From an uncultured bacterium (GTDB taxonomy: Bacteria > CSSED10-310 > CAZUFC01): DNA of 31,750 bases. A program made the translations under genes and the position numbers. The notes beneath the pieces were generated by a model, which saw nothing but the letters and a program-made list of their open reading frames with translations, was not told the origin of the DNA and searched no databases. Positions 5,943 through 31,492 of this stretch are shown here, piece after piece. The DNA lies in NCBI GenBank assembly GCA_964619725.1, contig CAZUFC010000036.1, forward strand, positions 12,254 through 44,003, given 5' to 3'. The first letter of the stretch is position 1; every line of letters starts with the position of its first letter.

Positions 5943-6009
5943 ATAATTAGTGACTGTCCAGCATTAAATATTGAATCGTGATTCGAGTTTGCGGACAGTC
6001 ACTAATTAT
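5943..6009 (-). repeat. palindromic MITE/REP-like element, family A (best-preserved copy); may also act as a bidirectional terminator
   Basis: Perfect 17-bp inverted repeat ATAATTAGTGACTGTCC / GGACAGTCACTAATTAT. The reverse-complemented interior (AAACTCGAATCACGATTCAATATTTAATGCT) closely matches the copies at 10788 and 25773. Confidence 0.85.
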
Positions 6010-8375
6010 CAGCCTACGCTGTGCTTTATGGCTATGCTGGCCTGGTTTCTTAATGTCTTTAAATAACTCAGCAGACTGTCGCTTATCTTATAGTTCTTCT
6101 GTTGAAGGTCCGCGTAAAACAGACCCACCGGAACATCTCTTACTACCAGCGGATACAGGATAAACGAAGGAGCGTTTATCGATCTCTTGTACCACAGAGG
6201 TATATCCTTTCTTATTTCAGGATCATCCGCGTCTTTTATGAAATAATCTTTTCTCTGGATGACTGCTTTATTGAATATATCCCTCTTGCCTTCGATATCG
6301 AAAATGAATTTTTTGATGACTCTGTCAACATCATTTCCATAGCCTAATCGCGCTTTCATTCTCGTCCGGGAGGCATCCAACATGCAAAACACGACCCGAT
6401 CGAATCTGAAACCTCGAAAAATCGTCTCCAGAATCATGATCATAACATCGTTCAGATCGAAATCGTCCATTAATATGTTCGTTATTTCCTGGATTCCGCT
6501 CAATAATCCCTTTAACTGCCCCTCCTCTTGCGTTTCCGGTTTTATTTTTTCGTCCGGCTGTTTCTCGGCGGGTTTCTTCGCTATTTTCTCCTTTTCTTCT
6601 TCCGTCGCTTCATCCACCGACTCAAGAACTGAAGGATCGCTATTAAGGCGCTTTATAAACCGGCTCTGCTTCACATCAATGTTCATGATATGGGAATATT
6701 CCTTCAATTTTTCCGTAGAAGAATCAATCAGTTCTCGTATTTCGCCGTCAGAGATTTGAATGCTCTTTTCAAATCTGTTTCTCAAATTCAGAAGCGCATC
6801 GTCTTTCGCCGAACCGGTTTTATTCTGAATAATATCGCACAGTTCATTCGAAAAATTCGTCACGGTTTTCAACGCATCCAGCTCAGATGCGGGTTTATCG
6901 ACTTCGCCCCCCCGCAGCCGGCTGGTAGCCTCGGTTATCATATCAGGGAAACGCCAGGCCTTGAGAACAGCTTTTCCAAGTTCTTCGTAGGAAACGCCGA
7001 GAACAGCTCTGGCCGCAAAATTTTCTTTGACTTTCCCGCCTGATGTTTTCTTTTTTATTTTTTCGTATTCATCCGGAAGATAGAAAATGATCACGAGTTT
7101 TCCCAGATTATAGAGCATAGCGCAGATAAAAACTTTTTCTTTGATATTCAATTTTTGAGATTCAGCAACGTCTCCGGCGATTATGCCGCTCATAAAGCAT
7201 TGCATAGCCGTATCCTGAAGATCAACGACCGATTTTTTGTCCCTTAGATGATCGAACAGTATAAGGCTGGCAGCGGCCATTCTGACGTTTTCAAATCCCA
7301 ATACCACTACAGCCCTTGATATGGTGGCGATTTTACCGGAAAACTGTCCGTAAAAAGCTGAATTGACGAGTTTCAGGAGTTTTGTGGTGAGAGAATAATC
7401 TTTCAAGATGACATTGGCGAGCTGTGAGGCTGAAATAAATTTTTCTTCCGCTTGAAACACATGCTGATTGATTTGCACTATCGATTTGACGAATCCCGGG
7501 AAATGCTTCTCAAAGTTTATCCTGCGCATTAACCTTTCCAGGTTCTCCTCCGATTCGTCCACAGCCTGACTTTTACTTCCCTTCTTGCCGACGGACCTTT
7601 TCCGGCTGTATTCAGTGAGTTCTTTTTCTAATTGCTCTACCGAACTGAACCGTTCGCCCCGCTTCCTGTTCAGAGCTTTCATCACGATTTCATCGATCAA
7701 CTCATCCGCCTGATCATTTATATGTGAAGGCGGGTCCAACTTTCCTCCGCTCGCTGCAACGCTCCTGGCCCCATTATCCCTTTGTATCGGACAGGCAGTC
7801 AGCATTTCATAAAAAAGCTCCCCCAGCGACAGAATGTCCAGGTAAGTCGCAGCTCTATCATCGCTCTGCTCCTGGCTTGACACCATTTCCGGTTTTAAAC
7901 CAGTTGATCCGGAATTCAGATAAAAAACGCCTAAATCCATAATTACCGGTATACGGTCTTCTTTCAGTATCACCTTGGATGCATCCAGGCGGCCGTGTAC
8001 TATACTCTTTTTATGAATTGAATTCACTGCGCGAGTGATCGATTGCATCAATTCCATCGCCTGATGCAATTCCAGCTTGCCCTTCCGCCTGATATGATCC
8101 CGTACGCTCATCCCTTTTACATATTGAAAAATTATATAGGGCCGTCCTGACTCTTCCCCGATTTCATATATCCTGTTGATGTAAGGATGTTTTAATTCAG
8201 TCAGATTGCCTACCGGCTGAATTTTATTGCCTTTTGCTGAATCCCCGTGAATGCTCGCCCCGTTAAACCTTTTTATCAGTACCTTTTCTTTCCGTTTCGA
8301 GTCCATTCCGAGACTCAAAGACTCTCCAGCATGACTTTCAAGACTTTTGAGAATGGTAAATTGTTTGAAATGCAT
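6009..8375 (-). CDS. Ser/Thr-kinase-like (probable pseudokinase) - HDOD - GAF signalling protein
   Basis: Kinase subdomains VLIK, LKHPYINRIYEIG, PYIIFQYVKG, DLG, DILSLG, RFSSVEQL; HDOD motifs LANVILKDYSLTTKLLKLVNSAFY, ISRAVVVLG, WRFP; C-terminal GAF-like domain (YPLVVRDVPVGLFYAD). Start set at ATG 8375 (TAAGGA SD); the ORF track starts at 8522. Confidence 0.85.
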   Translation of the reverse strand: MHFKQFTILKSLESHAGESLSLGMDSKRKEKVLIKRFNGASIHGDSAKGNKIQPVGNLTELKHPYINRIYEIGEESGRPYIIFQYVKGMSVRDHIRRKGKLELHQAMELMQSITRAVNSIHKKSIVHGRLDASKVILKEDRIPVIMDLGVFYLNSGSTGLKPEMVSSQEQSDDRAATYLDILSLGELFYEMLTACPIQRDNGARSVAASGGKLDPPSHINDQADELIDEIVMKALNRKRGERFSSVEQLEKELTEYSRKRSVGKKGSKSQAVDESEENLERLMRRINFEKHFPGFVKSIVQINQHVFQAEEKFISASQLANVILKDYSLTTKLLKLVNSAFYGQFSGKIATISRAVVVLGFENVRMAAASLILFDHLRDKKSVVDLQDTAMQCFMSGIIAGDVAESQKLNIKEKVFICAMLYNLGKLVIIFYLPDEYEKIKKKTSGGKVKENFAARAVLGVSYEELGKAVLKAWRFPDMITEATSRLRGGEVDKPASELDALKTVTNFSNELCDIIQNKTGSAKDDALLNLRNRFEKSIQISDGEIRELIDSSTEKLKEYSHIMNIDVKQSRFIKRLNSDPSVLESVDEATEEEKEKIAKKPAEKQPDEKIKPETQEEGQLKGLLSGIQEITNILMDDFDLNDVMIMILETIFRGFRFDRVVFCMLDASRTRMKARLGYGNDVDRVIKKFIFDIEGKRDIFNKAVIQRKDYFIKDADDPEIRKDIPLWYKRSINAPSFILYPLVVRDVPVGLFYADLQQKNYKISDSLLSYLKTLRNQASIAIKHSVG

Positions 8376-8806
8376 AAGAATCCTTATGATGTTTTCATTG
8401 ATTATTCGAAATGAGAAGCTTTTGTCCCAATCAACCAAAAAAGTGAAGAACCTGTATGCAGCGGCTGTTTCAAGCTGTCGCATACCGCTCTCCGGGTTAA
8501 CGCCGGAGCGCTTAGTCTCCATTATAAGAAGATTGAGATTTGAATCAATATCGTTAAGGATTTTTTTGCTTCAAAAGATGGAAAACGTTGTATCTATCTG
8601 GTTTTATTATGTTTTATTCTGACTGGAAAAGTAAAATCATGGGGATGATCGCTGTGAAATGACGGCATGCCGCGGATTTTGTTTTAAAGCCTGTTGGCGA
8701 TTCAATTTTGAGGACCTATAATATGTCTGAAAGAGTGGTTCCGATGTTTGAAAGCCGGATTTCGGAGCCGCGCTGGAGGACGTTAAGGCATGAGGATGAA
8801 GCGAAG

Positions 8807-11032: not shown

Positions 11033-14017
11033 TTAAAGCGTTTTGAGTATTCTCAACTGGATGACGGAGTTTCCTTCTCCGCCCTCTTCATTAGGAGCAT
11101 TGAACCCGTAGCCGAAATCGAACTGGACGAGGAAAGCCCAGGGACCCTGAAAGCCTCCGCCGAGACCAATGCCGAAACAATTCTTCCAATCCCCCGGATA
11201 TTCCTTGATATAAGCGTCATCAAGAAAGAGTTCAAATCTAAGGAAATCCGAAAATACCCATCCGAAGGAGCCTTTCAAAAGGCCGGCGGATTCAGCGCGT
11301 AAAGTATTGGCTCCGTAGCCGTGAATATAATTCTGGAAGAAACCGAATTGATGAGCGCTGAACCTGTCCAGATTTTTTCCTGAAAGAAACGCTCCTTCAA
11401 ATTTCAGACGCTTGAAATTCTTCATAAGGAAACTCCTGGTCACTTTGAGGCCATATTTATTGAACGAAGCGTCAGTATCGTTCAAGTCATCTTCCGGTCC
11501 CCATTCAGCCCAAGGCTCCCGGTTGTGCACCTCCGCCCAGGCTTTGGCCACGAATCCCCAACGATCGAATTCAATCGTCGCTCTGCCGATATGATCAATA
11601 TGATCCTCAGGCATTCGATAATTTTCTCCGGTATCTTCATTTTTTTGAACCGCCGAATAGGCAGCTTCATAGGTCAATTTCAATTTCCAGTCGACCTGGA
11701 AGGGCATCGCGATATTTATATTAGCCGTCAGAGGCAATATGTCCAGGGTTTCTTTTTCTCTGACTTCGCCTTCCACGAAGTATTTATCGGTCAAGGGAAC
11801 GGCGAAGGCAAGCACGTCCGAGCCGACTTCCAGTTTATTGTTCCACAGGGAGTGATTATACAGGTTCAAGGTTAACAGAGCGCCGGCGAACAGGAGATTC
11901 ATATGAGTTTTCGTATCGAAGAGGTTGAAATCGTAATAATTGAAACCAAGCAAGGGCAGGGGAAAATCCTGTGCCTGATCAGCGATAACGCCCGTCAACA
12001 GGAACTTGAGCGAATCCTCCGTATCATCCCTTAACACTCTTTTGCCTTTCTTTTTATCCAGATATCTCAATCCTTTCTCCGTATCCCTCATCATTCGGTG
12101 TGAACTCTCATATGCCATTGTTCTTTTTTCATTAAAAGGTTCGCTGTTGATTGCGTAATTGTGAAATTGGGTTTTTCTGTCCAGGACAGTATTTCTGCCT
12201 GCGGTAGTGAAAATCTGCTGTCCCGTTATCGTCGCCGGTAAAACATAGGTTTTATTCTGTGAGGTCGTGAGTCGCTTGAAACGTTCTGTTTGCCTGCTTG
12301 ATATCACGGGAGGTTCCAGGCCCAGTTGAACAGTTTTGAGTTTCAGCTTCCGATAATCATTGCGGCTGATCCATATTTTACCTTCATACAGCCTGGTCAA
12401 CGTTTCTGATACAGGTTTAAACGCAATGATCCAACAGGCCTCCCCGTCAATATCCTCCTCACCCTCCAGTGAATATTCATAATGTTCGTCCAAAGTTATA
12501 TCCAGCGGAACAGCCTGAACTTTTTCCGGCTGCAGCATGGGCAAATCCAGGCAACGGGCCCCTCTCCATCTCACACCGTCCAGGTAAAATTCTTTCTGTT
12601 CCCAATCAGCGCCCTGTCCTCTTTCATAAAAAAAAGAACCGTCTATCGCCAATTCATAACTCATTTCCAGCGCCGGTATCTTTAAGTAAAGACTCACCGT
12701 CCCATCGCAGAAATAATGCTCCAGACTCGCCTCCTGCAATGTTTCCACCGCCTGGTAACGCGTTATTATCTCCTCAGCCGTCACACGTTTTTCTCCCGCC
12801 ACTTCTACCGTGAAAGCCACCTTTTCCTCGGAAACGGCTGAGTAAGGATCGTAACGTAAAATCAGCGGAGTTCTCGAAACCGGCACATTGCGAATGAAAG
12901 CAGCGTTTAATTTATCGTCTCTGTGAAAAAACAAATCCGTCATGGTTATGTCGTTCGCCAGGTCGTATATCACAGGCGCTTCTACGTCCGACGTATCGAT
13001 AAGGCAGCGCGGAACAGTCGAATATGAACCGCTTTCATCATAATAAACCGCCAGATAATTCAACTTCTTCAGATCAAAAAATGTTTCAAATCTTACATGC
13101 TTCAATCGATTACCCTTTTCATCCAGAAAATAAAAACGCTCCTCCGGAGGTTCCTGGGGAACAATCTGCGGAGAAAAAAAACGGTTCAACCTGTCCAGAA
13201 AATCAATTCTTTCGGTCAGTCCTTCTTCTTCGATGCTCTCAGTAAATCTTTCCAGTAAAACATTAGAGCGTCGCTCATTCGCATGAAGGAACTTCTTGTA
13301 AAATTCCGTTTTTGTTTCGAAAATGAAATCCGCCAGGACCAGGAAATCTTCCGCCGCTTCTCCAGGAATACGCTCAAAGGATTCCCCTGCCTCTCCCGAT
13401 AAGTAAATCCCTTCATAGTAATTCTTGAACTCCGGCCCCATATTCATCACTCTTTCATAATGATCCTGGTCTATGTCTGCCGCGATGATTGCTTTTTCAT
13501 TGAAACCCTTCAGCAATACTGATGTTTTCTTCAAGAAAAAAAGGGCATCCCGGAGACTCAGTTCATTCGGAAAGGGAACCACATATCCGCCGGGCAAGTC
13601 GCCCCAGTATTCGACCAGCCTCTCCAGTCCATCCAGCCATGCCGATGCGTATTCTTCAACGGAAGCGCCGTTGAGATATTCCTTTCGGGTTATTTTGAAC
13701 ATCTGAAGTATCGAAAGAATCTCCCTTTCTTCCAAAAAGCGCCGGAAATCCCGGTTCATAAATGCTTCAGGTTTTCCCTCCCAAACGACAAATACCGGTT
13801 TTGACTCTTCCGACCCTTTATTGAAAATCCTATCTCTATAACTCTTTTCGAAGTATTTCGAATATTCGATAAAATTCTCTGCTTCAGCCGTAAAACCAAT
13901 ATAAGTCGTAAGATTGAGATTTATGGCGGCATTTTGGGAGTCGTCTGCCGCATCAGCAATGCCTGCAAGCGACGAAAAAAACAGCAATCCAATGCAAAAT
14001 TCCCGGAAACATCTCAT
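11033..14017 (-). CDS. large exported protein, probably outer-membrane: N-terminal alpha/beta domain, LolA/MucB-like central domain, C-terminal beta-barrel
   Basis: Signal peptide ending IADA; YEYSLEGEEDIDGEACWIIAFKP...YEGKIWIS..DY motif resembles LolA-like sorting domains; last ~330 aa show alternating aromatic/Gly strands (FGIGLGGGFQGPWAFLVQFDFGYGF). Confidence 0.65.
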   Translation of the reverse strand: MRCFREFCIGLLFFSSLAGIADAADDSQNAAINLNLTTYIGFTAEAENFIEYSKYFEKSYRDRIFNKGSEESKPVFVVWEGKPEAFMNRDFRRFLEEREILSILQMFKITRKEYLNGASVEEYASAWLDGLERLVEYWGDLPGGYVVPFPNELSLRDALFFLKKTSVLLKGFNEKAIIAADIDQDHYERVMNMGPEFKNYYEGIYLSGEAGESFERIPGEAAEDFLVLADFIFETKTEFYKKFLHANERRSNVLLERFTESIEEEGLTERIDFLDRLNRFFSPQIVPQEPPEERFYFLDEKGNRLKHVRFETFFDLKKLNYLAVYYDESGSYSTVPRCLIDTSDVEAPVIYDLANDITMTDLFFHRDDKLNAAFIRNVPVSRTPLILRYDPYSAVSEEKVAFTVEVAGEKRVTAEEIITRYQAVETLQEASLEHYFCDGTVSLYLKIPALEMSYELAIDGSFFYERGQGADWEQKEFYLDGVRWRGARCLDLPMLQPEKVQAVPLDITLDEHYEYSLEGEEDIDGEACWIIAFKPVSETLTRLYEGKIWISRNDYRKLKLKTVQLGLEPPVISSRQTERFKRLTTSQNKTYVLPATITGQQIFTTAGRNTVLDRKTQFHNYAINSEPFNEKRTMAYESSHRMMRDTEKGLRYLDKKKGKRVLRDDTEDSLKFLLTGVIADQAQDFPLPLLGFNYYDFNLFDTKTHMNLLFAGALLTLNLYNHSLWNNKLEVGSDVLAFAVPLTDKYFVEGEVREKETLDILPLTANINIAMPFQVDWKLKLTYEAAYSAVQKNEDTGENYRMPEDHIDHIGRATIEFDRWGFVAKAWAEVHNREPWAEWGPEDDLNDTDASFNKYGLKVTRSFLMKNFKRLKFEGAFLSGKNLDRFSAHQFGFFQNYIHGYGANTLRAESAGLLKGSFGWVFSDFLRFELFLDDAYIKEYPGDWKNCFGIGLGGGFQGPWAFLVQFDFGYGFNAPNEEGGEGNSVIQLRILKTL

Positions 14018-14265: not shown

Positions 14266-15285
14266 CTATTGAAGTCCTTTCAGGTATTTGTAGTAATCGG
14301 AATCCACGCTCATGATAAGGGTAGTATCTTTAGACAGGGTGGTGTTGTAGGTTTCGAGGGTTTTATAGAAGGAGTAGAAATCCGGGTCTTTCTCGTATGC
14401 TTCAGCATATATTCTGATGGCTTGCGCATCAGCATCGCCTCTTATTTTTTCGGCTTTTTTGTAGGCTTCGGAATATATCTGCTTCAGGTCTTTTTCCCGC
14501 TTGCCTATCCAGCGCTCTTTCATGCCCTGGCCTTCGGATCTGTATTTTTCAGCAACCTGCATCCTCTCAGAAATCATTCTATCGTAAACTTTTCTTCTTA
14601 CATTTTCCACGTAATTGATTCTTTTTATCCTGACATCCACAAGGTTTATTCCATATTTGGGCATCATTTCCTCAGCCTGCTCCTGTATCAAGTCCATGAT
14701 TTCGCTTCTTCCCATTTCAATCTCTTCCGCCTCAGCATAAACCAGACCTTCTTCTTCCGTTTCCTCAACAGTTTTTTCAACTTCTTCCAGGGATTCCCCC
14801 TCATTGTCTGATTCTTCAAAGGATTTCTTTTCTTCTGAGAGGTCCGCGCTTATCAGCATGGGTCGATTGGAATTTCTGACAACCTCGATGAGCCTATAGC
14901 TCGTAATCGCGTCACGGGCGGCTGAATCGATGATATCGTCCAGTCTGGCGTGAGCGCTCCGTTTCGAGCCGACGGACTGCAGAAAGAGTAAGGGATCAAC
15001 GATGCGCCAGCGTGCGAAGGTATCAAGATAAATGAATCTTTTGTCTTTAGTGGGTATTTCGCTGGGATAACCGTCCCATTCCAGCAGCCGTTTTTCAAAC
15101 TTGTTCACCTTTTGGATAAAGGGAAGCTTAACATGCAGTCCCGGTTGATCGATGACGCCACCTACCGGTTTGCCGAACTGAGTGATGATGACCTGTTCCG
15201 TTTCGTTTACGATATAAAACGCCCCATATCCGACAATGACGACGAGGACGATAATGATCGGTATTACGGCTTTCATTGCGTTCAT
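14266..15285 (-). CDS. hflC: FtsH protease modulator HflC
   Basis: N-terminal TM; IITQFGKPV..PGLHVKLPFIQ, RWRIVDPL, DVRIKRINY, VYDRMISER, IRGDADAQA, DPDFYSFYKTLE; overlaps the hflK stop by 4 bp (ATGA). Confidence 0.97.
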   Translation of the reverse strand: MNAMKAVIPIIIVLVVIVGYGAFYIVNETEQVIITQFGKPVGGVIDQPGLHVKLPFIQKVNKFEKRLLEWDGYPSEIPTKDKRFIYLDTFARWRIVDPLLFLQSVGSKRSAHARLDDIIDSAARDAITSYRLIEVVRNSNRPMLISADLSEEKKSFEESDNEGESLEEVEKTVEETEEEGLVYAEAEEIEMGRSEIMDLIQEQAEEMMPKYGINLVDVRIKRINYVENVRRKVYDRMISERMQVAEKYRSEGQGMKERWIGKREKDLKQIYSEAYKKAEKIRGDADAQAIRIYAEAYEKDPDFYSFYKTLETYNTTLSKDTTLIMSVDSDYYKYLKGLQ

Positions 15286-16274
15286 TGCTGAGTCCCTCCT
15301 TTCTCCTTTAACTCACTCACATTCAGCAGCTTGAGCAGCCCTTCGCCGGTATCGTCCACCAATATTTTTTCGCCCATGTTCGGTATGACTTTCTGGAGAG
15401 TCTCAAGGAAAATTCTGCGTTTGGTTATATCCTGGGATTTTCTGTATTCGGTATAAATCGCTTCGAACCGTGAAGCATCGCCTTGAGAGCGGTTCACGCG
15501 GTCCAGCGCATAACCTTCCGCTGCCTGAACCATCTTGTTCGCCTCGCCTCTGGCCTTCGGTATGGCCTTATTGTAAGCCTGCTTGGCCTGGTTGATCATT
15601 TTCTCTCTTTCCTGCTTGGCCTGGTTGACTTCGTTAAACGAAGGCTTGACCGGATCGGGCGGATTAACGTCCTGAAGTTTCACAGTCAATATTTCTATCC
15701 CGGATTTATATTCATCTAAAATATCCTGCATGGACTCCTGAACAGCCACGCCGATCTCAACGCGGCCGACCGTCAATACTTCACTTACGCCTCTGTCTCC
15801 TACCACTTCCCTCATTACCGATTCGGATACGTCACGGATCGTGTCTTCCACGTTCCTGACGCGGAAAAGATAATGCACAGGGTCCTTGATTTTATACTGA
15901 ACGATCCATTCCACGTCCGTTATATTCAAATCCCCCGTCAATAATAACGATTCGTCGCTGTAATCCTTCCTGGAATAGGTCGTCTGCACTCCCGCTGAAA
16001 TTGTCCTGAAACCGAACTCCTCCTTATGAATCCGATCGACTTTTACCTTGTCCACCTTTTCAATATTGAACGGCACCAGGAAATGCAGCCCCGATTCCGT
16101 CGTCCGAACATATTTTCCCAATCTTCTTACCACTCCGACTTCATCAGGTCCCACCGTATAGAAGCTGGTAAAAATCAGAATCAAAGCGATAATCACAATA
16201 ATTATCGGCACCACCAACTTCTTTGAATTCGGGGGTAACTGAAAATCCTGCGGAGAAATGTTCTCCAAATTCAT
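15282..16274 (-). CDS. hflK: FtsH protease modulator HflK
   Basis: GVVRRLGKY, LLTGDLNITDVEWIVQYKI, LQDVNPPDPVKPSF, IPKARGEA, AEGY, GDASRF; SD AGGAGGT. Confidence 0.97.
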   Translation of the reverse strand: MNLENISPQDFQLPPNSKKLVVPIIIVIIALILIFTSFYTVGPDEVGVVRRLGKYVRTTESGLHFLVPFNIEKVDKVKVDRIHKEEFGFRTISAGVQTTYSRKDYSDESLLLTGDLNITDVEWIVQYKIKDPVHYLFRVRNVEDTIRDVSESVMREVVGDRGVSEVLTVGRVEIGVAVQESMQDILDEYKSGIEILTVKLQDVNPPDPVKPSFNEVNQAKQEREKMINQAKQAYNKAIPKARGEANKMVQAAEGYALDRVNRSQGDASRFEAIYTEYRKSQDITKRRIFLETLQKVIPNMGEKILVDDTGEGLLKLLNVSELKEKGGTQQ

Positions 16275-25850: not shown

Positions 25851-26091
25851 AGTTAGAATTGCGCCTGCTCCTCTTATCTTCCCTCCCGACGACGACCGGG
25901 CGAGCATAGGGTGACTTTGGACAAACGGAAATTGAGCGAATAGAGACGAAAAAACTTGTATCAGAGGCAGCATTTGGAGTAATTTGTAATGTCTGTTCTC
26001 TCCGGGAGCAGAGGAAGGAATGAATATCCGGAGAATATTTCCGTCGCTATGAATCGGAAAAAATTCAAATGTGCTTTACAGAGGAACCGAG

Positions 26092-27888
26092 ATGATCAAA
26101 TTCAGATATGTCACAGTCGCAGTCGTGATGATAATGAGCATTTTCCTGTCGTGGGCTGTGCTGGGCGAAATGAAGCAACTGGAAGGAGCTTCGCCGAAGG
26201 AAGCAATCAATGTAATACTCATATCCCTGGATACGCTGAGGGCCGATTATGTAGGAATATACGGGAACCCGGAGCCGCTGACGCCGTTTTTGGATGAGCT
26301 TTTGTCAGAAAACGTATGGTTCAGGGACTGTATCGTTCAGGCCCCCTGGACGCTTGCTTCCCACATGAGTTTATTAACATCTCAATACCCCAACGTACAT
26401 AACGTCAACCTGGCGGAAGCCAAGCTTGCGGAAGGCAAAAAAACGCTGGCTCATTATCTGAGCGAATACGGATATTATACGAAAGGAATTATCAGCAATC
26501 CTTTTTTGAGTCATGGATTCGGTTTTCACCGGGGATTCGACGCCTACAATGACGCGGGCAAAAAACACGGTTATCAGAGCACGCAACAATTTGTTCAGTG
26601 GGTGGAAGGCGCGCACAATAAAAATCAGCCGTTTTTTCTTTTTCTTCATTACAATGATCCGCACATGCCGTACCAGGCGCCGACGCCGTTCTATAATCTT
26701 TTCGACAGAGAATACGAAGGATCGGTGTCCGGGTCGAGAAACGACATAGTGAAGTATGTGCGACGGCCCATAGAGGAACGGGACCTTCAGCACATCAGGA
26801 ATCTTTACGGCGATGAGGTCCGGTATCTCGACAACCAGCTCTACCAGGTTTTCTGCATATTAAAAGAACTGGGCCTGTATGAAGACAGCCTGATAATAAT
26901 GACTGCGGATCACGGAGAAGAATTCAAGGAACACGGAAAGCTGGAACACAATCAGACCCTTTACGAAGAATTGATACGATCGCCCCTTGTCATTAAATTT
27001 CCTGAAAAAATGAACATCCGGCCGCGCATGATATCACGCCAGGTCAAAAACATAGACCTCCTGCCCACGATATTGGACGTCGTCGGAGCTCCCATACCGG
27101 AAGATTCCGTGCAGGGACAATCCCTTCTTCCGTTAATACTTGAGGAACCCGGAACGGAAAATTTCAATCACATGATTTTCTCCGAAAGCGCCAACACGCA
27201 CAAAGTATCGATTCGCAGCGAAAATTGGAAATATATTTACGATCGACGATATGACCAGGAAGAATTATACAATCTGGAAACGGACCCGGAAGAAAGACAA
27301 AACCTTATTTCATCCGAACCTGAACTGGCCGCGGAACTTTCCGAACTGGTAAATAATTACATGATGCAGGCTCAGAGCGGCTGGCATCTGAGGACGCGTT
27401 ATCCTTTTAACATACGCGGAGTTCTGAGGACGACGGGACGTTTTACGCCTGTAAAGGCTTTTACGATTGAAGAAGATGATTCATTGGAAGTTTCCGGGGA
27501 CCAGAAGGAGATTTTTTTCAATTTCAAAAGTGAAAAAAGAGCCGACACTCTGGACGGAATCGATTTCAATCTTCTGCCGTCCGATGCTGCACTTGAACTG
27601 GAAATCCTCGACGCCGGGGACCTTTCGATATCATCCGCGCTTTCCAGAATCTATATCGGCAGCCGGTACGCAAAACCGTCGAAGCATCCCGTTCCATTGA
27701 CTGGCGAACGTCTTACCGCAGACCCTCTAGTCGATATAACCGATCTGATAATCATTACGAAAAGCCGAAGGGGAAAAATTCCCGGTCTTTACATCTGGAA
27801 ATTGCGCGACAGGGAGCAGAAAATTCAATGGGCCGACATAGATCAAAATACTCGCCAACGACTGGAAAGCCTCGGTTATTTCCGGTGA
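26092..27888 (+). CDS. membrane-anchored or exported sulfatase-like hydrolase/transferase (alkaline-phosphatase superfamily, Thr at the nucleophile position)
   Basis: NVILISLDTLRAD, TPFLD, QAPWTLASHMSLLTS (no CxPxR), FLHYNDPHMPY, TADHGEEF, LYEELIRSPL, ELYNLETDPEE; N-terminal hydrophobic segment; ends RQRLESLGYFR. Start at ATG 26092 (GAGGA SD). Confidence 0.9.
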   Translation: MIKFRYVTVAVVMIMSIFLSWAVLGEMKQLEGASPKEAINVILISLDTLRADYVGIYGNPEPLTPFLDELLSENVWFRDCIVQAPWTLASHMSLLTSQYPNVHNVNLAEAKLAEGKKTLAHYLSEYGYYTKGIISNPFLSHGFGFHRGFDAYNDAGKKHGYQSTQQFVQWVEGAHNKNQPFFLFLHYNDPHMPYQAPTPFYNLFDREYEGSVSGSRNDIVKYVRRPIEERDLQHIRNLYGDEVRYLDNQLYQVFCILKELGLYEDSLIIMTADHGEEFKEHGKLEHNQTLYEELIRSPLVIKFPEKMNIRPRMISRQVKNIDLLPTILDVVGAPIPEDSVQGQSLLPLILEEPGTENFNHMIFSESANTHKVSIRSENWKYIYDRRYDQEELYNLETDPEERQNLISSEPELAAELSELVNNYMMQAQSGWHLRTRYPFNIRGVLRTTGRFTPVKAFTIEEDDSLEVSGDQKEIFFNFKSEKRADTLDGIDFNLLPSDAALELEILDAGDLSISSALSRIYIGSRYAKPSKHPVPLTGERLTADPLVDITDLIIITKSRRGKIPGLYIWKLRDREQKIQWADIDQNTRQRLESLGYFR

Positions 27889-28105: not shown

Positions 28106-29257
28106 ATGCTGATCAGGCCTCATGGAGGAAAGCTCGTTAATCGGATGGTTACGGCGAGAGAGAAAGAAGAATTAATGAATCAATGCAGCGATTTGGTTCA
28201 AATTTCTTTGTCGGATGACAAATTGAAAGAAGTCAGGAACATCGCTCACGGCGTTTTCAGTCCCCTGGAAGGTTTTATGACCCGTTTGGACCTTGATCCC
28301 GTCGTCACCGACAGCAGGCTCTCCGACAATAATTATTGGACGGTGCCGATACTGCTGGCCGTCGACCGGAATCTGGTCGAAAAACTGGAAATGAACTCAA
28401 AAGCGGCGCTGACCGATTCTGAAGGAAAAATCTACGGGGCATTGACCATTGAAGATATATTTGAATACGACAAGAAGAAAATGGCCAAAAGCGTGTTCGG
28501 AACGGAAGATGCCGAACATCCCGGAGTAGCTAAAATTTATGGTGAAGGCGATTATTACATCGGCGGACCTATCGACCTGTTTGAAGCGCCTCCCACGCCT
28601 TATGACGACAATTACCTCTCCCCCAGGGAAACCCGTTACCTGTTCAACCGCCTGGGCTTCAGAACAGTAGCCGCCTTTCAGACGAGAAATCCTCCTCACA
28701 GAGCACACGAATACCTCCAAAAATGCGCTCTTGAAGTCTGCGACGGTTTGTTCATTAACCCTGTCATCGGAAAGAAAAAAGTGGGCGATTTTACCGACCA
28801 TCTCATTCTTAAAACTTACAGAAAACTGATCGAAGCGTTTTATCCGAAAGATAGGGCCGTTCTCAGCATACTTCCCTGGGAGATGAGATACGCGGGTCCC
28901 AAGGAAGCTATTTTCCACGGCATCGTCAGAAAGAATTTCGGCTGCTCGCATCACATTATCGGTCGCGATCACGCGGGAGTCGGCGATTATTACGGCACAT
29001 TCGACGCGCAGGAGATTTTCTCGGAGTTTCCCGGACTTGAAATCGAACCCCTGAAATTCGAACACTCCTTTTATTGCGTAAAGTGCGGAAATATGGGAAC
29101 GTGCAAAACCTGCCCCCATCCCAATGAGGACCACGTTAATCCCAGCGGAACGAAAATCAGAGGCGTCGTTACCGAAGGCGCTGAAGTGTCGCCCAAGATA
29201 ATGCGTCCGGAAATAGCCGGAATTATCGCTTCAGACGATGACCCATTTGTGAAATGA
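28106..29257 (+). CDS. sat: sulfate adenylyltransferase (ATP sulfurylase, Sat type)
   Basis: PHGGKLVNR, FSPLEGFM, HPGV, FQTRNPPHRAHEY, MRYAGPKEA, GRDHAGVG, Zn-site CVKC...CPH, SGTKIR. Start at ATG 28106 (GGGGAGGT SD); the ORF track start at 27926 is too long. Confidence 0.98.
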   Translation: MLIRPHGGKLVNRMVTAREKEELMNQCSDLVQISLSDDKLKEVRNIAHGVFSPLEGFMTRLDLDPVVTDSRLSDNNYWTVPILLAVDRNLVEKLEMNSKAALTDSEGKIYGALTIEDIFEYDKKKMAKSVFGTEDAEHPGVAKIYGEGDYYIGGPIDLFEAPPTPYDDNYLSPRETRYLFNRLGFRTVAAFQTRNPPHRAHEYLQKCALEVCDGLFINPVIGKKKVGDFTDHLILKTYRKLIEAFYPKDRAVLSILPWEMRYAGPKEAIFHGIVRKNFGCSHHIIGRDHAGVGDYYGTFDAQEIFSEFPGLEIEPLKFEHSFYCVKCGNMGTCKTCPHPNEDHVNPSGTKIRGVVTEGAEVSPKIMRPEIAGIIASDDDPFVK

Positions 29258-29399: not shown

Positions 29400-30797
29400 A
29401 TGACCAGAACTCAAAAAAAACTCGTAGTAATAGGACTCGACTGCGCTTCCCCCGAACTGATCTTTGAAAAATGGATCGATGACCTGCCCAATTTCCGCAG
29501 ATTGATATCCTCAGCCGTATACGGTCGCCTGAAAAGCACTATCCCTCCCATCACTATTCCCGCCTGGGCATCCATGCTGACGGGCATGTCGCCCGGACAC
29601 CTGGGCGTATACGGCTTCCGGAACCGCCGATCACATAAATACGGCGATGAATCCTTCGCCGTATCAAGCTCCGTCAGATACCCCATGATCTGGGAACTGC
29701 TGTCCAATTTCGGAAAATCTTCCGTCGTGATCGGCGTTCCCCAGACTTATCCGCCCAAACCATTCAACGGCAAACTCGTTTCAGGTCTGCTTACGCCGGG
29801 AAATCAGGCGCCTTATACGCATCCCCTCAGCCTTAAACAGGAACTTGAAAATAAATTCGGCGACATTATCTTCGATATCGATCACTTTCGTGAGCTGGAC
29901 AAACGAAAACTGGCCGAAAGAATACGTGAAATGTCCGATCAGCGTTTCGCCCTGGCTGATTACCTGATGCAAAACAGTAAATGGGATTTCTCGATCTTCG
30001 TCGATATGGGTCCAGACAGACTCCACCACGGATTCTGGAAATACATGGATGAAACTCATCCCAAACATAACCCGGACTCGCCTTTCGCAGACATCATTAA
30101 GGATTACTACAAACACCTGGACACACTGATCGGCAATCTCACCGCTCAACTCGATCCCGATACCGCCGTTATTATCGTATCAGACCACGGAGCCCAGGCC
30201 ATGCACGGCGGAGTCTGCCTCAATGAATGGCTGAGGAAAAAAGGTCTTCTGACCCTTAAACAGGAACCTGAAAAACCTTCCCCGCTCAATTTCGATATGA
30301 TCGACTGGAAAAATACGAAAGCCTGGGGTTACGGCGGATACTGCGGTCGGATTTGTCTGAACGTTGTAAATCGAGAACCTGAAGGCACTGTTGAGCAGCA
30401 GGACTTCGAAAAAATGAAAAATTCCATCGCTGAAAACCTGATCTCTATTAAAAGACCGGACGGCTCTCCTATGAACAACAGGATTTTCGATCCGCGAAAA
30501 ATTTACTCGCCCGCCAACGGAATACCCCCGGACCTCATCGTCTACTTCGATGACCTGAAATGGCGCTCCGTCGGCAGCGTCGGGACAGACTCAATCTATA
30601 CCTTCGAAAACGACCTGGGCCCCGACGACGCAAACCACTCCGAATACGGCATCTATATACTCCATTCGCCTCATTTCAATAAATCAGTATCGCACGAATC
30701 AAACCTGTTGAATATTACGCCGACTATTCTTCAGTACTTCAATCTGCCCTCGCCGGACAGACTTATAGGTCAACCTATAACGGCAGATTTCAGATAA
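29400..30797 (+). CDS. cytoplasmic alkaline-phosphatase-superfamily protein (NPP/type I phosphodiesterase-like, COG3379-type)
   Basis: VVIGLDCA, LKSTIPPITIPAWASMLTG..PG..GVYGF, DRLHHGFW, IIVSDHG, DDANHSEYGI, ITPTIL; no signal peptide. Confidence 0.9.
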   Translation: MTRTQKKLVVIGLDCASPELIFEKWIDDLPNFRRLISSAVYGRLKSTIPPITIPAWASMLTGMSPGHLGVYGFRNRRSHKYGDESFAVSSSVRYPMIWELLSNFGKSSVVIGVPQTYPPKPFNGKLVSGLLTPGNQAPYTHPLSLKQELENKFGDIIFDIDHFRELDKRKLAERIREMSDQRFALADYLMQNSKWDFSIFVDMGPDRLHHGFWKYMDETHPKHNPDSPFADIIKDYYKHLDTLIGNLTAQLDPDTAVIIVSDHGAQAMHGGVCLNEWLRKKGLLTLKQEPEKPSPLNFDMIDWKNTKAWGYGGYCGRICLNVVNREPEGTVEQQDFEKMKNSIAENLISIKRPDGSPMNNRIFDPRKIYSPANGIPPDLIVYFDDLKWRSVGSVGTDSIYTFENDLGPDDANHSEYGIYILHSPHFNKSVSHESNLLNITPTILQYFNLPSPDRLIGQPITADFR

Positions 30798-30877
30798 AAT
30801 ATTATGAACGTAAATCTCATCACTGAAAATATTCTTCATTTTCAACAAAAAACACACCCTTGAAGGAGGTTGTCATC

Positions 30878-31492
30878 GTGGAACACCCCGGATTCACTCT
30901 TTGGTTCACAGGATTACCCTGCTCAGGAAAAACCACCCTCGCCGATCACGTCGCTGATCGACTGAAAAAGCTGGGAATGAATATTGAACGCCTGGACGGA
31001 GATATCGTCCGTAAAGGTCTTACCAGGGACCTCGGATTCTCAAAAGAAGACAGAGACATGAACATCGAACGAGTCACCTTCGTGGCCAAACTGCTCAGCA
31101 GGAACAATGTGGGCGTTCTGCTTTCCTTCGTCTCCCCTTACATTAAAGCCAGGGACAACGCCAGAAAAGAATGTACCAATTTTATCGAAGTATTCGTAAA
31201 AGTTTCCCTGGAAGAAGCGGAAAAACGTGACGTCAAAGGTATGTATAAAAAAGCCAGGCAGGGAATCATAAAGGATTTCACGGGCGTCGACGACCCCTAT
31301 GAAGAACCGCCTCGTGCCGAAATCATCGTGGACACCGACGTCGAATCCCTCGAGGAAAGCTCGGATAAAGTCGTTGATAAACTGAAAGAATTAGGTTTCA
31401 TACCGACTGAAGAAGCAGACGTCTTTTCTAAAGAAGAAGAAGAAACAATTAAAGCAAGACTCGAAAACCTGGGATACCTGGATCGGAACTGA
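30878..31492 (+). CDS. cysC: adenylyl-sulfate (APS) kinase
   Basis: WFTGLPCSGKTT, LDGDIVR, DLGFSKEDRDMNIER, RDVKGMY, FTGVDDPYEEP; GTG start at 30878 with AAGGAGGT SD; extra C-terminal tail. Confidence 0.98.
   Translation: MEHPGFTLWFTGLPCSGKTTLADHVADRLKKLGMNIERLDGDIVRKGLTRDLGFSKEDRDMNIERVTFVAKLLSRNNVGVLLSFVSPYIKARDNARKECTNFIEVFVKVSLEEAEKRDVKGMYKKARQGIIKDFTGVDDPYEEPPRAEIIVDTDVESLEESSDKVVDKLKELGFIPTEEADVFSKEEEETIKARLENLGYLDRN

Follow-up and report, generated by a model that had tools for sequence, protein, structure and literature searches.

Introduction

The locus considered here raises the question of why an APS kinase (CysC) should end in a peptide typical of another enzyme family, next to a member of that family from which the same peptide is missing. 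It lies in the window, i.e., the whole stretch of 31,750 nucleotides analyzed (contig CAZUFC010000036.1 of an uncultured bacterium, assembly GCA_964619725.1), where sat, alkP1, and cysC form one unit. An initial annotation had described the CysC tail as a docking peptide supplied in trans to the tail-less AP-fold enzyme AlkP1, in a complex that channels PAPS. The reading favored here, to which we give somewhat better than even chances, is that a tail-less AP-fold enzyme receives, in trans, a portable tyrosine-bearing peptide. PAPS is made by many bacteria and archaea that have no recognizable consumer for it, and for AP-fold sulfotransferases such as Agl30 and Agl31 neither donor nor mechanism is stated in the available text of their description (PMC11980604); the tail links both problems. 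The operon itself has been published, as seen in the accessible sections of PMC8268124 and PMC4463584, and the tail is absent from the literature searched, which comprised open-licence PMC and bioRxiv. New in the present analysis are the genome-level complementarity of tails, a second subfamily without a tail (AlkP2), the carriers that are dead CysC or free peptides, and the Agl30/Agl31 ends.

Genes of the Window

The features needed for the argument are as follows.

26092-27888, forward strand: sulfatase-like AP-fold protein (PF00884, E 3e-44)
28106-29257, forward strand: ATP sulfurylase (Sat), whose gene opens the sat-alkP1-cysC unit (PF01747 + PF14306; PRK04149 over cut-off)
29400-30797, forward strand: AlkP1, tail-less NPP-fold enzyme (PF01663, E 3.3e-45)
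30878-31402, forward strand: APS kinase (CysC) core, with an intact P-loop (GLPCSGKT) and the end KLKELGFI
31403-31423, forward strand: CysC linker PTEEADV, short and acidic
31424-31492, forward strand: extra C-terminal tail of CysC, FSKEEEETIKARLENLGYLDRN, an acidic amphipathic helix with an LGY end

The CysC ORF spans 30860-31492, with a likely GTG start at 30878 preceded by GGAGG. The core matches PF01583 (E 1.5e-57) and TIGR00455 (over cut-off) and, with its P-loop, is that of an APS kinase. The tail comprises 22 residues; its tyrosine codon lies at 31475-31477 and the stop at 31490-31492. The C-terminus of AlkP1 is LIGQPITADFR, without an LGY tail, and the sulfatase-like ORF (26071-27888) ends DIDQNTRQRLESLGYFR (RQRLESLGYFR), its own LGY tail occupying 27838-27888. 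The three observations from which the initial annotation started, i.e., a CysC continuing past KLKELGFI through an acidic linker into a tail, a tailed sulfatase-like protein, and a tail-less AlkP, are all correct.

The sulfatase-like protein scores below all NCBIfam cut-offs and is not classed as a formylglycine sulfatase, since it bears the Thr motif PWTLASH where formylglycine sulfatases have C/SxPxR. Its N-terminus is hydrophobic (hydropathy 2.4), paralogues are encoded on contigs C5 and C82, and it is probably just one among about 70 tailed paralogues and no specific partner itself. The sulfatase-sat-alkP-cysC region occurs in two copies, on C36 and C117, that are identical over 20,961 bases; it has probably been duplicated in assembly (contamination figure 6.5%). 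A promoter and terminator scan found 5 sites versus 4.5 expected, i.e., chance level. Elsewhere in the window are a protein kinase-HDOD-GAF fusion (6009-8522, reverse strand; Pfam), two SPFH/Band 7 genes in tandem (14266-16274, reverse strand), and a 994-aa ORF (11033-14017) with a weak LolA-like match only.

Nature of the C-Terminal Tail

The tail lies outside the APS kinase family models. These stop at residues 158-181 of 210, the PF01583 match at 158 and that of TIGR00455 at 175, and in the AF2 model (pTM 0.80) the tail is a separate helix (185-197 of 204; pLDDT 89) behind a linker of lower pLDDT (71-81), which varies in length and sequence across relatives. L, L, G, and Y are invariant among 43 CysC tails. 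The best 120 CysC homologues include 75 tailed, 38 untailed (at most 184 aa), and 7 assigned to neither group, a list in which tailed matches are favored because the query is itself tailed. A second tailed CysC in the same genome (C230:2961-3602) is distant (39% identity) and has no AlkP on its 8 kb contig; going by the look of the sequence, it is flanked by a gene of radical-SAM type and one for a membrane protein.

The tail motif, EEExIxxRLxxLGY, is that of AP-fold enzymes; the initial annotation had already called it a common terminus of this superfamily. Among 75 AP-fold ORFs of at least 350 aa in the same genome, a loose LxxLGY-type motif is C-terminal in 61 and internal in 10, with further domains or sequence after it; the motif-less ORFs are both AlkP1 copies and two others. 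The nucleophile motifs read in these AP-fold ORFs are Thr or Ser, with no clear CxPxR. A tail profile of 16 columns, built from database proteins and used with a score mark of at least 20, was matched by 102 of 34,843 closed ORF ends in 177 AlkP1 loci. These 102 are CysC, AP-fold enzymes, or small motif-bearing carriers, and such a selective distribution argues that the tail is not a product of chance. Of 8,109 ORFs of at least 150 aa in the genome of the window, 16 reached the same mark: 3 CysC, 12 AP-fold enzymes (11 from the AP-fold match lists and one on C100 with a PF01663 match), and 1 unexplained. The last is an 822-aa ORF (C204:7566-10034; tail score 21) outside the AP-fold match lists. 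The tail is thus a mark of about 70 AP-fold enzymes in one genome, mobile between unrelated proteins.

The native APS kinase also closes its last helix with a loose LxxLG[FY] (PDB 7yq0, E 2.8). That the tail is a copy of this helix is rejected on profile scores: with a profile of CysC tails only, the cis tails of AlkP1 score a median of 34.8 (n = 12), whereas the native last helix of CysC scores a median of 2.5-3.0 and a maximum of 16 (n = 38 and 75). CysC therefore bears an AP-enzyme tail. LxxRLxxLGY also occurs within peptidoglycan-binding repeats; assignment of the tail to a peptidoglycan-binding domain (PF01471) was rejected, since the tail lacks the full three-helix repeat; its single match is PG_binding_2 at E 0.08, with true repeats at E <1e-140. 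Pfam gave no over-cut-off match for the tail, three free peptides, and seven RHH-like carriers. Two PDB searches with tail profiles matched no AP-fold chain, and the tail-less AlkP1 had 2 weak sequence matches only in the PDB. The ESM Atlas returned only automatic PF01663 names. A tail is present on 12 of the top 120 AlkP1 homologues.

The tyrosine is nearly invariant. All 91 locus tails, whose selection did not depend on Tyr, have it, as do 226 of 228 protein tails, a set partly selected with a Tyr-containing profile; at the equivalent position of CysC's own helix, Phe occurs 19 times and Tyr 4 times (n = 25). This difference implies that the hydroxyl matters.

Co-occurrence of Tailed CysC and Tail-Less AlkP

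If the tail serves AlkP1 in trans, tailed CysC should accompany tail-less AlkP1, as the initial annotation proposed. In a set of 261 genomes, 112 have CysC and 30 have AlkP1, all 30 of the latter with CysC. Tail-less AlkP1 is present in 24 of the 28 genomes with a tailed CysC (the 24 representing 20 families), and the remaining 4 all have a tail-less AlkP2. Among the 84 genomes with untailed CysC only, 78 lack AlkP1 and 6 have it. The Fisher p of 5e-15 for the association across the 112 genomes is an overstatement, as related genomes do not count as independent. The 28 tailed CysC were verified in fetched loci, and "untailed" mostly denotes the end of an HMM match; HMM coverage alone misled on the tails of three genomes (G113, G107, G152), which were dropped after inspection. 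Tailed cysC and alkP1 lie on different contigs in three genomes (G134, G163, G187), and in G127 the two genes are convergent, the tail nonetheless being kept. One small phylum has a tailed CysC in 13 of 13 genomes.

Complementarity is seen in the opposite case. In 8 genomes, from about three or four lineages, AlkP1 bears the tail in cis; the CysC is untailed in all 7 of those with a CysC match, 1 having no match. Per locus, 171 non-redundant complete AlkP1 loci were compared (2 duplicates and 4 cut-off loci having been dropped from 177), 161 with a tail-less and 10 with a tailed AlkP1. A dedicated carrier of the tail is encoded in 63 of the 161 and in 0 of the 10; restricted to loci with full flanks, a carrier accompanies 33 of 96 tail-less AlkP1 and none of 7 tailed ones (p 0.09). 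Within the tail-less AlkP1 loci, 47 of 64 complete CysC genes are tailed and 17 untailed. Co-occurrence across genomes supports the proposed supply in trans; a strict one-to-one supply of tails per locus is rejected.

The tail is also wider in distribution than its presumed acceptor. The tail profile matches 59 of the 261 genomes. AlkP1 or AlkP2 occurs in 42 genomes, 38 of which are matched, and the other 21 matched genomes have neither; the closed genome G107 has neither enzyme yet 13 tail matches, and G113 has AlkP1 and no tail match. AlkP1 as the sole loader of every tail is ruled out by these 21 genomes.

Carriers of the Tail

Within the AlkP1 loci (n = 177), the tail is carried by CysC, P-loop-less CysC, RHH-like proteins, free peptides, and AlkP1 itself. 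Carrier types were additionally drawn from the best 150 of 608 matches obtained when 1.84 billion representatives were searched with a profile, a search biased towards short CysC fragments. The tail persists on degenerate or miniature CysC that lack a P-loop in 6 of 6 cases checked. PF01583 is still matched, weakly, by two of the P-loop-less carriers (L045 and L073), and four carriers of 93-97 aa were named CysC remnants from position and end alone. Retention of the tail after loss of the kinase shows that the tail itself is under selection. Free tail peptides of 42-44 aa are encoded in L130, L134, L141, and L169. The RHH-like protein of the operon is tailed in 11 of 12 cluster members, with RHH matches below cut-off. 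An AlkP remnant in L089 has the tail and lacks the catalytic motifs, and two proteins (P0261, P0286) are double-tailed. In three loci (L107:1596-2504, L112:6760-7518, L164:7457-8275), a CysC has an RHH-like segment ahead of its tail.

Further carriers adjoin other tail-less enzymes. In L383, a dead CysC-like ORF with a tail lies directly before AlkP2, the second tail-less subfamily. A tailed RHH-like protein of 64-68 aa adjoins tail-less PF01663 enzymes of 670-770 aa in L223, L317, L372, L376, and L377, and these loci are a separate module. DUF2061 membrane proteins with an LGY tail (L380:5812-6132, L381:5739-6044) are possible membrane-bound carriers. CysD proteins have a conserved GY[FM] C-terminus. 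A PF01507 protein (L386:8012-8920; G253 C19) ends QKLRSLGYM and adjoins a CysN-like GTPase and a tail-less AlkP2; here, the CysD end might act as tail donor. In L378:2391-3524 (G005 C18), an ABC ATPase with a TOBE domain ends LRMKLQSLGYIE (weak tail score, 16); a tailed RHH gene lies a few kb away.

Sat is fused to AlkP1 (~865 aa) in 13 loci, mostly of Anaerolineae/Chloroflexota, with a tailed CysC mostly next.

Sat-AlkP1 fusions: L022, L023, L025, L028, L030, L035, L040, L059, L062, L063, L088, L104, L143

A PHP gene, which we take to encode a pAp phosphatase, is present in 17 of the 177 loci, and a CobW gene, presumably for a metal chaperone, in 5.

Active Site of AlkP1 and Predicted Docking

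The residues T52, D14, D206, H210, D262, H263, and H413 are at 100% among 174 AlkP1 sequences; as in NPPs generally, we take Thr52 to be the nucleophile and the other six to be metal ligands. The model of a tailed AlkP1 homologue superposes on Xac NPP (Z 31, rmsd 3.1, 344 aligned residues, 16% identity), and together with the PF01663 match this places AlkP1 in the NPP clade, i.e., AP fold, Thr nucleophile, and six metal ligands. In the AF2 model of the homologue P0142, the cis tail has a pLDDT of about 76 and the linker of 61. AlkP1 furthermore has invariant arginines (R74, R164, R207, R317, R389), which are mostly absent from 67 other AlkP paralogues.

The complex of AlkP1 (99-row alignment) with the last 34 CysC residues (43 rows) and two Zn was predicted. 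It passed with a score of 0.83, as against controls of 0.55, 0.01, and 0.02; of 157 solved complexes, 116 reach the score mark, as against 2 of 215 pairs that are mismatched, a calibration that is only rough here, own alignments and Zn having been used. Contact agreement was at least 72% and partner pLDDT at least 68 in the complex runs. The 0.55 control retained the tail and exchanged AlkP1 for another protein, and by this prediction the tail helix is sticky. The predicted interface comprises AlkP1 residues 51, 73-74, 159-165, 207, 210, 311-314, and 405-408 and tail residues L25, L28, G29, and Y30, plus a D159-R24 pair; the AlkP1 contacts named are I51 (which adjoins Thr52), F73, R74, D159 to R164, R207, H210, G313, and Y314, Thr52 itself being outside the listed contacts. 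The predicted site is thus the catalytic cleft, with LGY placed next to Thr52, the nucleophile, and His210, one of the Zn ligands. Memory of a similar complex is unlikely because no AP-fold chain of the PDB matches the tail profiles.

Conservation of the AlkP1 interface residues is 70-100% within every one of four groups (174 sequences). The 67 other paralogues mostly lack the docking residues and keep the metal ligands and F73. The docking residues are equally conserved in 46 carrier-less loci and, for that reason, may serve the substrate. Taken together, binding of the tail to AlkP1 is supported, not shown, by the complex prediction. The claim of a docking peptide acting in trans accordingly gains from co-occurrence (24 of 28), complementarity (7 of 7), and the complex score, and loses its obligatory character to the 17 untailed CysC of 64.

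Proposed Role and Alternatives

The proposed mechanism is that the tyrosine-tipped peptide enters the two-metal cleft of a large branch of AP-fold enzymes. Most members of the branch would use a tail in cis, whereas AlkP1, usually tail-less, would take it in trans from a neighbor. In the window this would be CysC; in other loci, a tailed paralogue, a free peptide, an RHH protein, or a CysC that is dead would take its place. The invariant arginines of AlkP1 would bind activated sulfate (APS or PAPS), and the sulfuryl group would be moved via Thr52, with the tail tyrosine completing the site; tethering of CysC beside AlkP1 would be a side benefit. Tail and tail-less enzyme may be part of an undescribed hand-over of sulfate. 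In line with this reading, no PF01507 (PAPS reductase/CysD) match was found in the genome of the window (90.9% complete). Several findings stand against docking in trans. With a dedicated carrier in 63 of 161 tail-less loci, supply is not obligatory per locus, and 21 of 59 tail-positive genomes have neither AlkP1 nor AlkP2. Many tailed paralogues are apparently exported, according to a crude hydropathy test, and would be unable to reach a cytoplasmic loader. The tailed CysC on C230 has no adjoining AlkP, and the same genome has 4 PF13469 sulfotransferase genes whose products could use PAPS. The Sat-AlkP1 fusions count against a sulfotransfer role, and the syntenic archaeal enzyme TON_1705 hydrolyses PPi alone (PMC9653972, table), which counts against both.

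A stronger form of the same explanation is that AlkP1 sulfates the tail tyrosine from PAPS or APS and that the resulting aryl-sulfate peptide donates to glycan-modifying AP-fold enzymes. Given docking, the chances that the tyrosine is itself sulfated and passes the group on are roughly even; as a whole, we hold this form to be less likely than not. In its favor are a tyrosine that is not swapped for Phe, the free peptides and small carriers that adjoin tail-less AlkP sets (L130, L134, L141, L169, and L383, and likewise L223, L317, L372, L376, and L377), the double tails, and the AlkP1 arginines mostly missing from the 67 other paralogues; the C-terminal tyrosine shuttle of PatA is a precedent (PMC12148441, in the text available). 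The PHP gene, on its presumed role, and the pAp phosphatase of the archaeal cluster (PMC8268124, accessible sections) imply that pAp is made. It is contradicted by tailed enzymes in the 21 genomes that have neither subfamily and by the many that are probably exported, and no covalent geometry emerged. In its widest and equally doubtful version, AP-fold loaders would sulfate the tyrosine of a mobile LGY peptide, which may stand alone or form part of CysC, an RHH or DUF2061 protein, or the enzymes; with this aryl sulfate, misannotated "sulfatases" and "phosphodiesterases" would then sulfate glycans. If true, this would concern dozens of enzymes per genome, constitute sulfotransfer without a P-loop sulfotransferase, and make the tail a sequence marker.

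Less likely as the main purpose is the channeling put forward in the initial annotation, in which the tail tethers CysC to AlkP1 for direct passage of PAPS, or in which Sat, AlkP1 (as a pyrophosphatase), and CysC form a PAPS-making complex. The presence of CysC in every AlkP1 genome, the 13 Sat-AlkP1 fusions, the PPase activity of TON_1705 (PMC9653972, PMC4463584), and the passed complex prediction are in its favor. As a core purpose, channeling is not supported: carriers incapable of PAPS synthesis, i.e., P-loop-less CysC, RHH proteins, and free peptides, keep the tail; in addition, the predicted site is the catalytic cleft and no remote tether, and the motif occurs, unlinked to CysC, in 71 of the genome's 75 AP-fold proteins. 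Overall, we regard channeling as improbable. It is similarly unlikely that the tail does not dock into AlkP1 at all, being a self-associating tag or a helix packed on CysC, with the predicted interface an artefact. The sticky 0.55 control, the loose likeness to the last CysC helix, the high pLDDT of the tail in the CysC model, and LxxRLxxLGY in peptidoglycan-binding repeats would fit such an artefact, whereas the distance of the tail profile from the native helix, a distribution complementary to cis-tailed AlkP1, and carriers that repeatedly adjoin tail-less enzymes argue for docking. Least probable is a regulatory plug, in which a pseudo-substrate tail shuts a promiscuous hydrolase, or in which an RHH regulator or CysC senses its state: the predicted occupation of the active site, the RHH tail in 11 of 12 cluster members, and the activity of TON_1705 alone (PMC9653972) are consistent with it, and the conserved tyrosine and the tails of Agl30/Agl31 and about 70 paralogues suit a positive role better. 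Docking of a portable tyrosine peptide in trans hence remains the preferred reading.

Comparison with Known Systems

AlkP1 resembles Xac NPP (2gsn/7n1s) and ENPP1-7 in fold, Thr nucleophile, and two-metal ligand set, whereas identity between the NPPs and the AlkP1 type is 13-17% and AlkP1 has the extra invariant arginines. The ten best structural alignments to NPPs end at residue 460-462, before the tail.

DltX has a C-terminal tyrosine that serves as an acyl shuttle. The same has been described for PatA (PMC12148441, in the text available), and the LGY tail resembles both as a short terminal peptide, fused or free, with a near-invariant tyrosine, and would likewise move between active sites. 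The two differ in carrying acyl groups and in their MBOAT and SGNH folds; the likeness is an analogy, with no homology claimed.

Tails acting on another protomer are found in choline sulfatase (SmCS), SpAS1, and the PMHs, where the C-terminal tail of one protomer extends to the entrance of a second protomer's active site and activity depends on it (PMC5870055, accessible text). As described there, these tails act within homo-oligomers of formylglycine enzymes and never come from an unrelated protein; the PDB sequences of SmCS, SpAS1, and the PMHs gave no LGY-profile match.

Closer in kind are Agl30 (VNG1056C) and Agl31 (VNG1057C), the N-glycan sulfotransferases of Halobacterium salinarum, identified by deletion and heterologous expression (PMC11980604). 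Read off the primers in that paper, Agl30 ends HLEDLGYL and Agl31 LEELGYT; VNG1063H ends KELGYIE in a frame that we chose for its validation primer. Like the sulfatase-like protein of the window and its paralogues, Agl30 and Agl31 are thus AP-fold sulfatase-like proteins with a C-terminal LxxLGY, a combined trait that is an observation of the present analysis with no published definition. Their tail is in cis, whereas AlkP1 is tail-less. In the available text, PAPS has 0 occurrences, no donor is named, the tail is undiscussed, and both proteins are functional with C-terminal tags (PMC11980604).

The closest parallel to the whole unit is the archaeal cluster copG-sat-pApase-type I phosphodiesterase-cysC of Pyrococcus yayanosii (pych_17520-17560) and Thermococcus onnurineus (TON_1704-1707), described in PMC8268124 and PMC4463584. 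As in those accounts, sat, a PF01663-type gene, and cysC stand together as one unit. The archaeal cluster and many related loci also have genes for an RHH/CopG protein and for a pAp phosphatase, both absent from the unit of the window. In the accessible sections of both papers, no canonical sulfotransferase was identified for the archaeal cluster, and its middle gene is taken as a pyrophosphatase, with no tail or interaction mentioned. AlkP1 is presumed, by synteny alone, to be orthologous to TON_1705, whose pyrophosphatase activity is likewise given in PMC4463584. In the table of PMC9653972, TON_1705 hydrolyses PPi without a partner with a kcat of 2.1 and a Km of 18.8e-6 M, and classical pyrophosphatases have a kcat of about 1e3-3e4. 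The tail suggests that this slow activity of the syntenic archaeal enzyme was measured with its partner absent.
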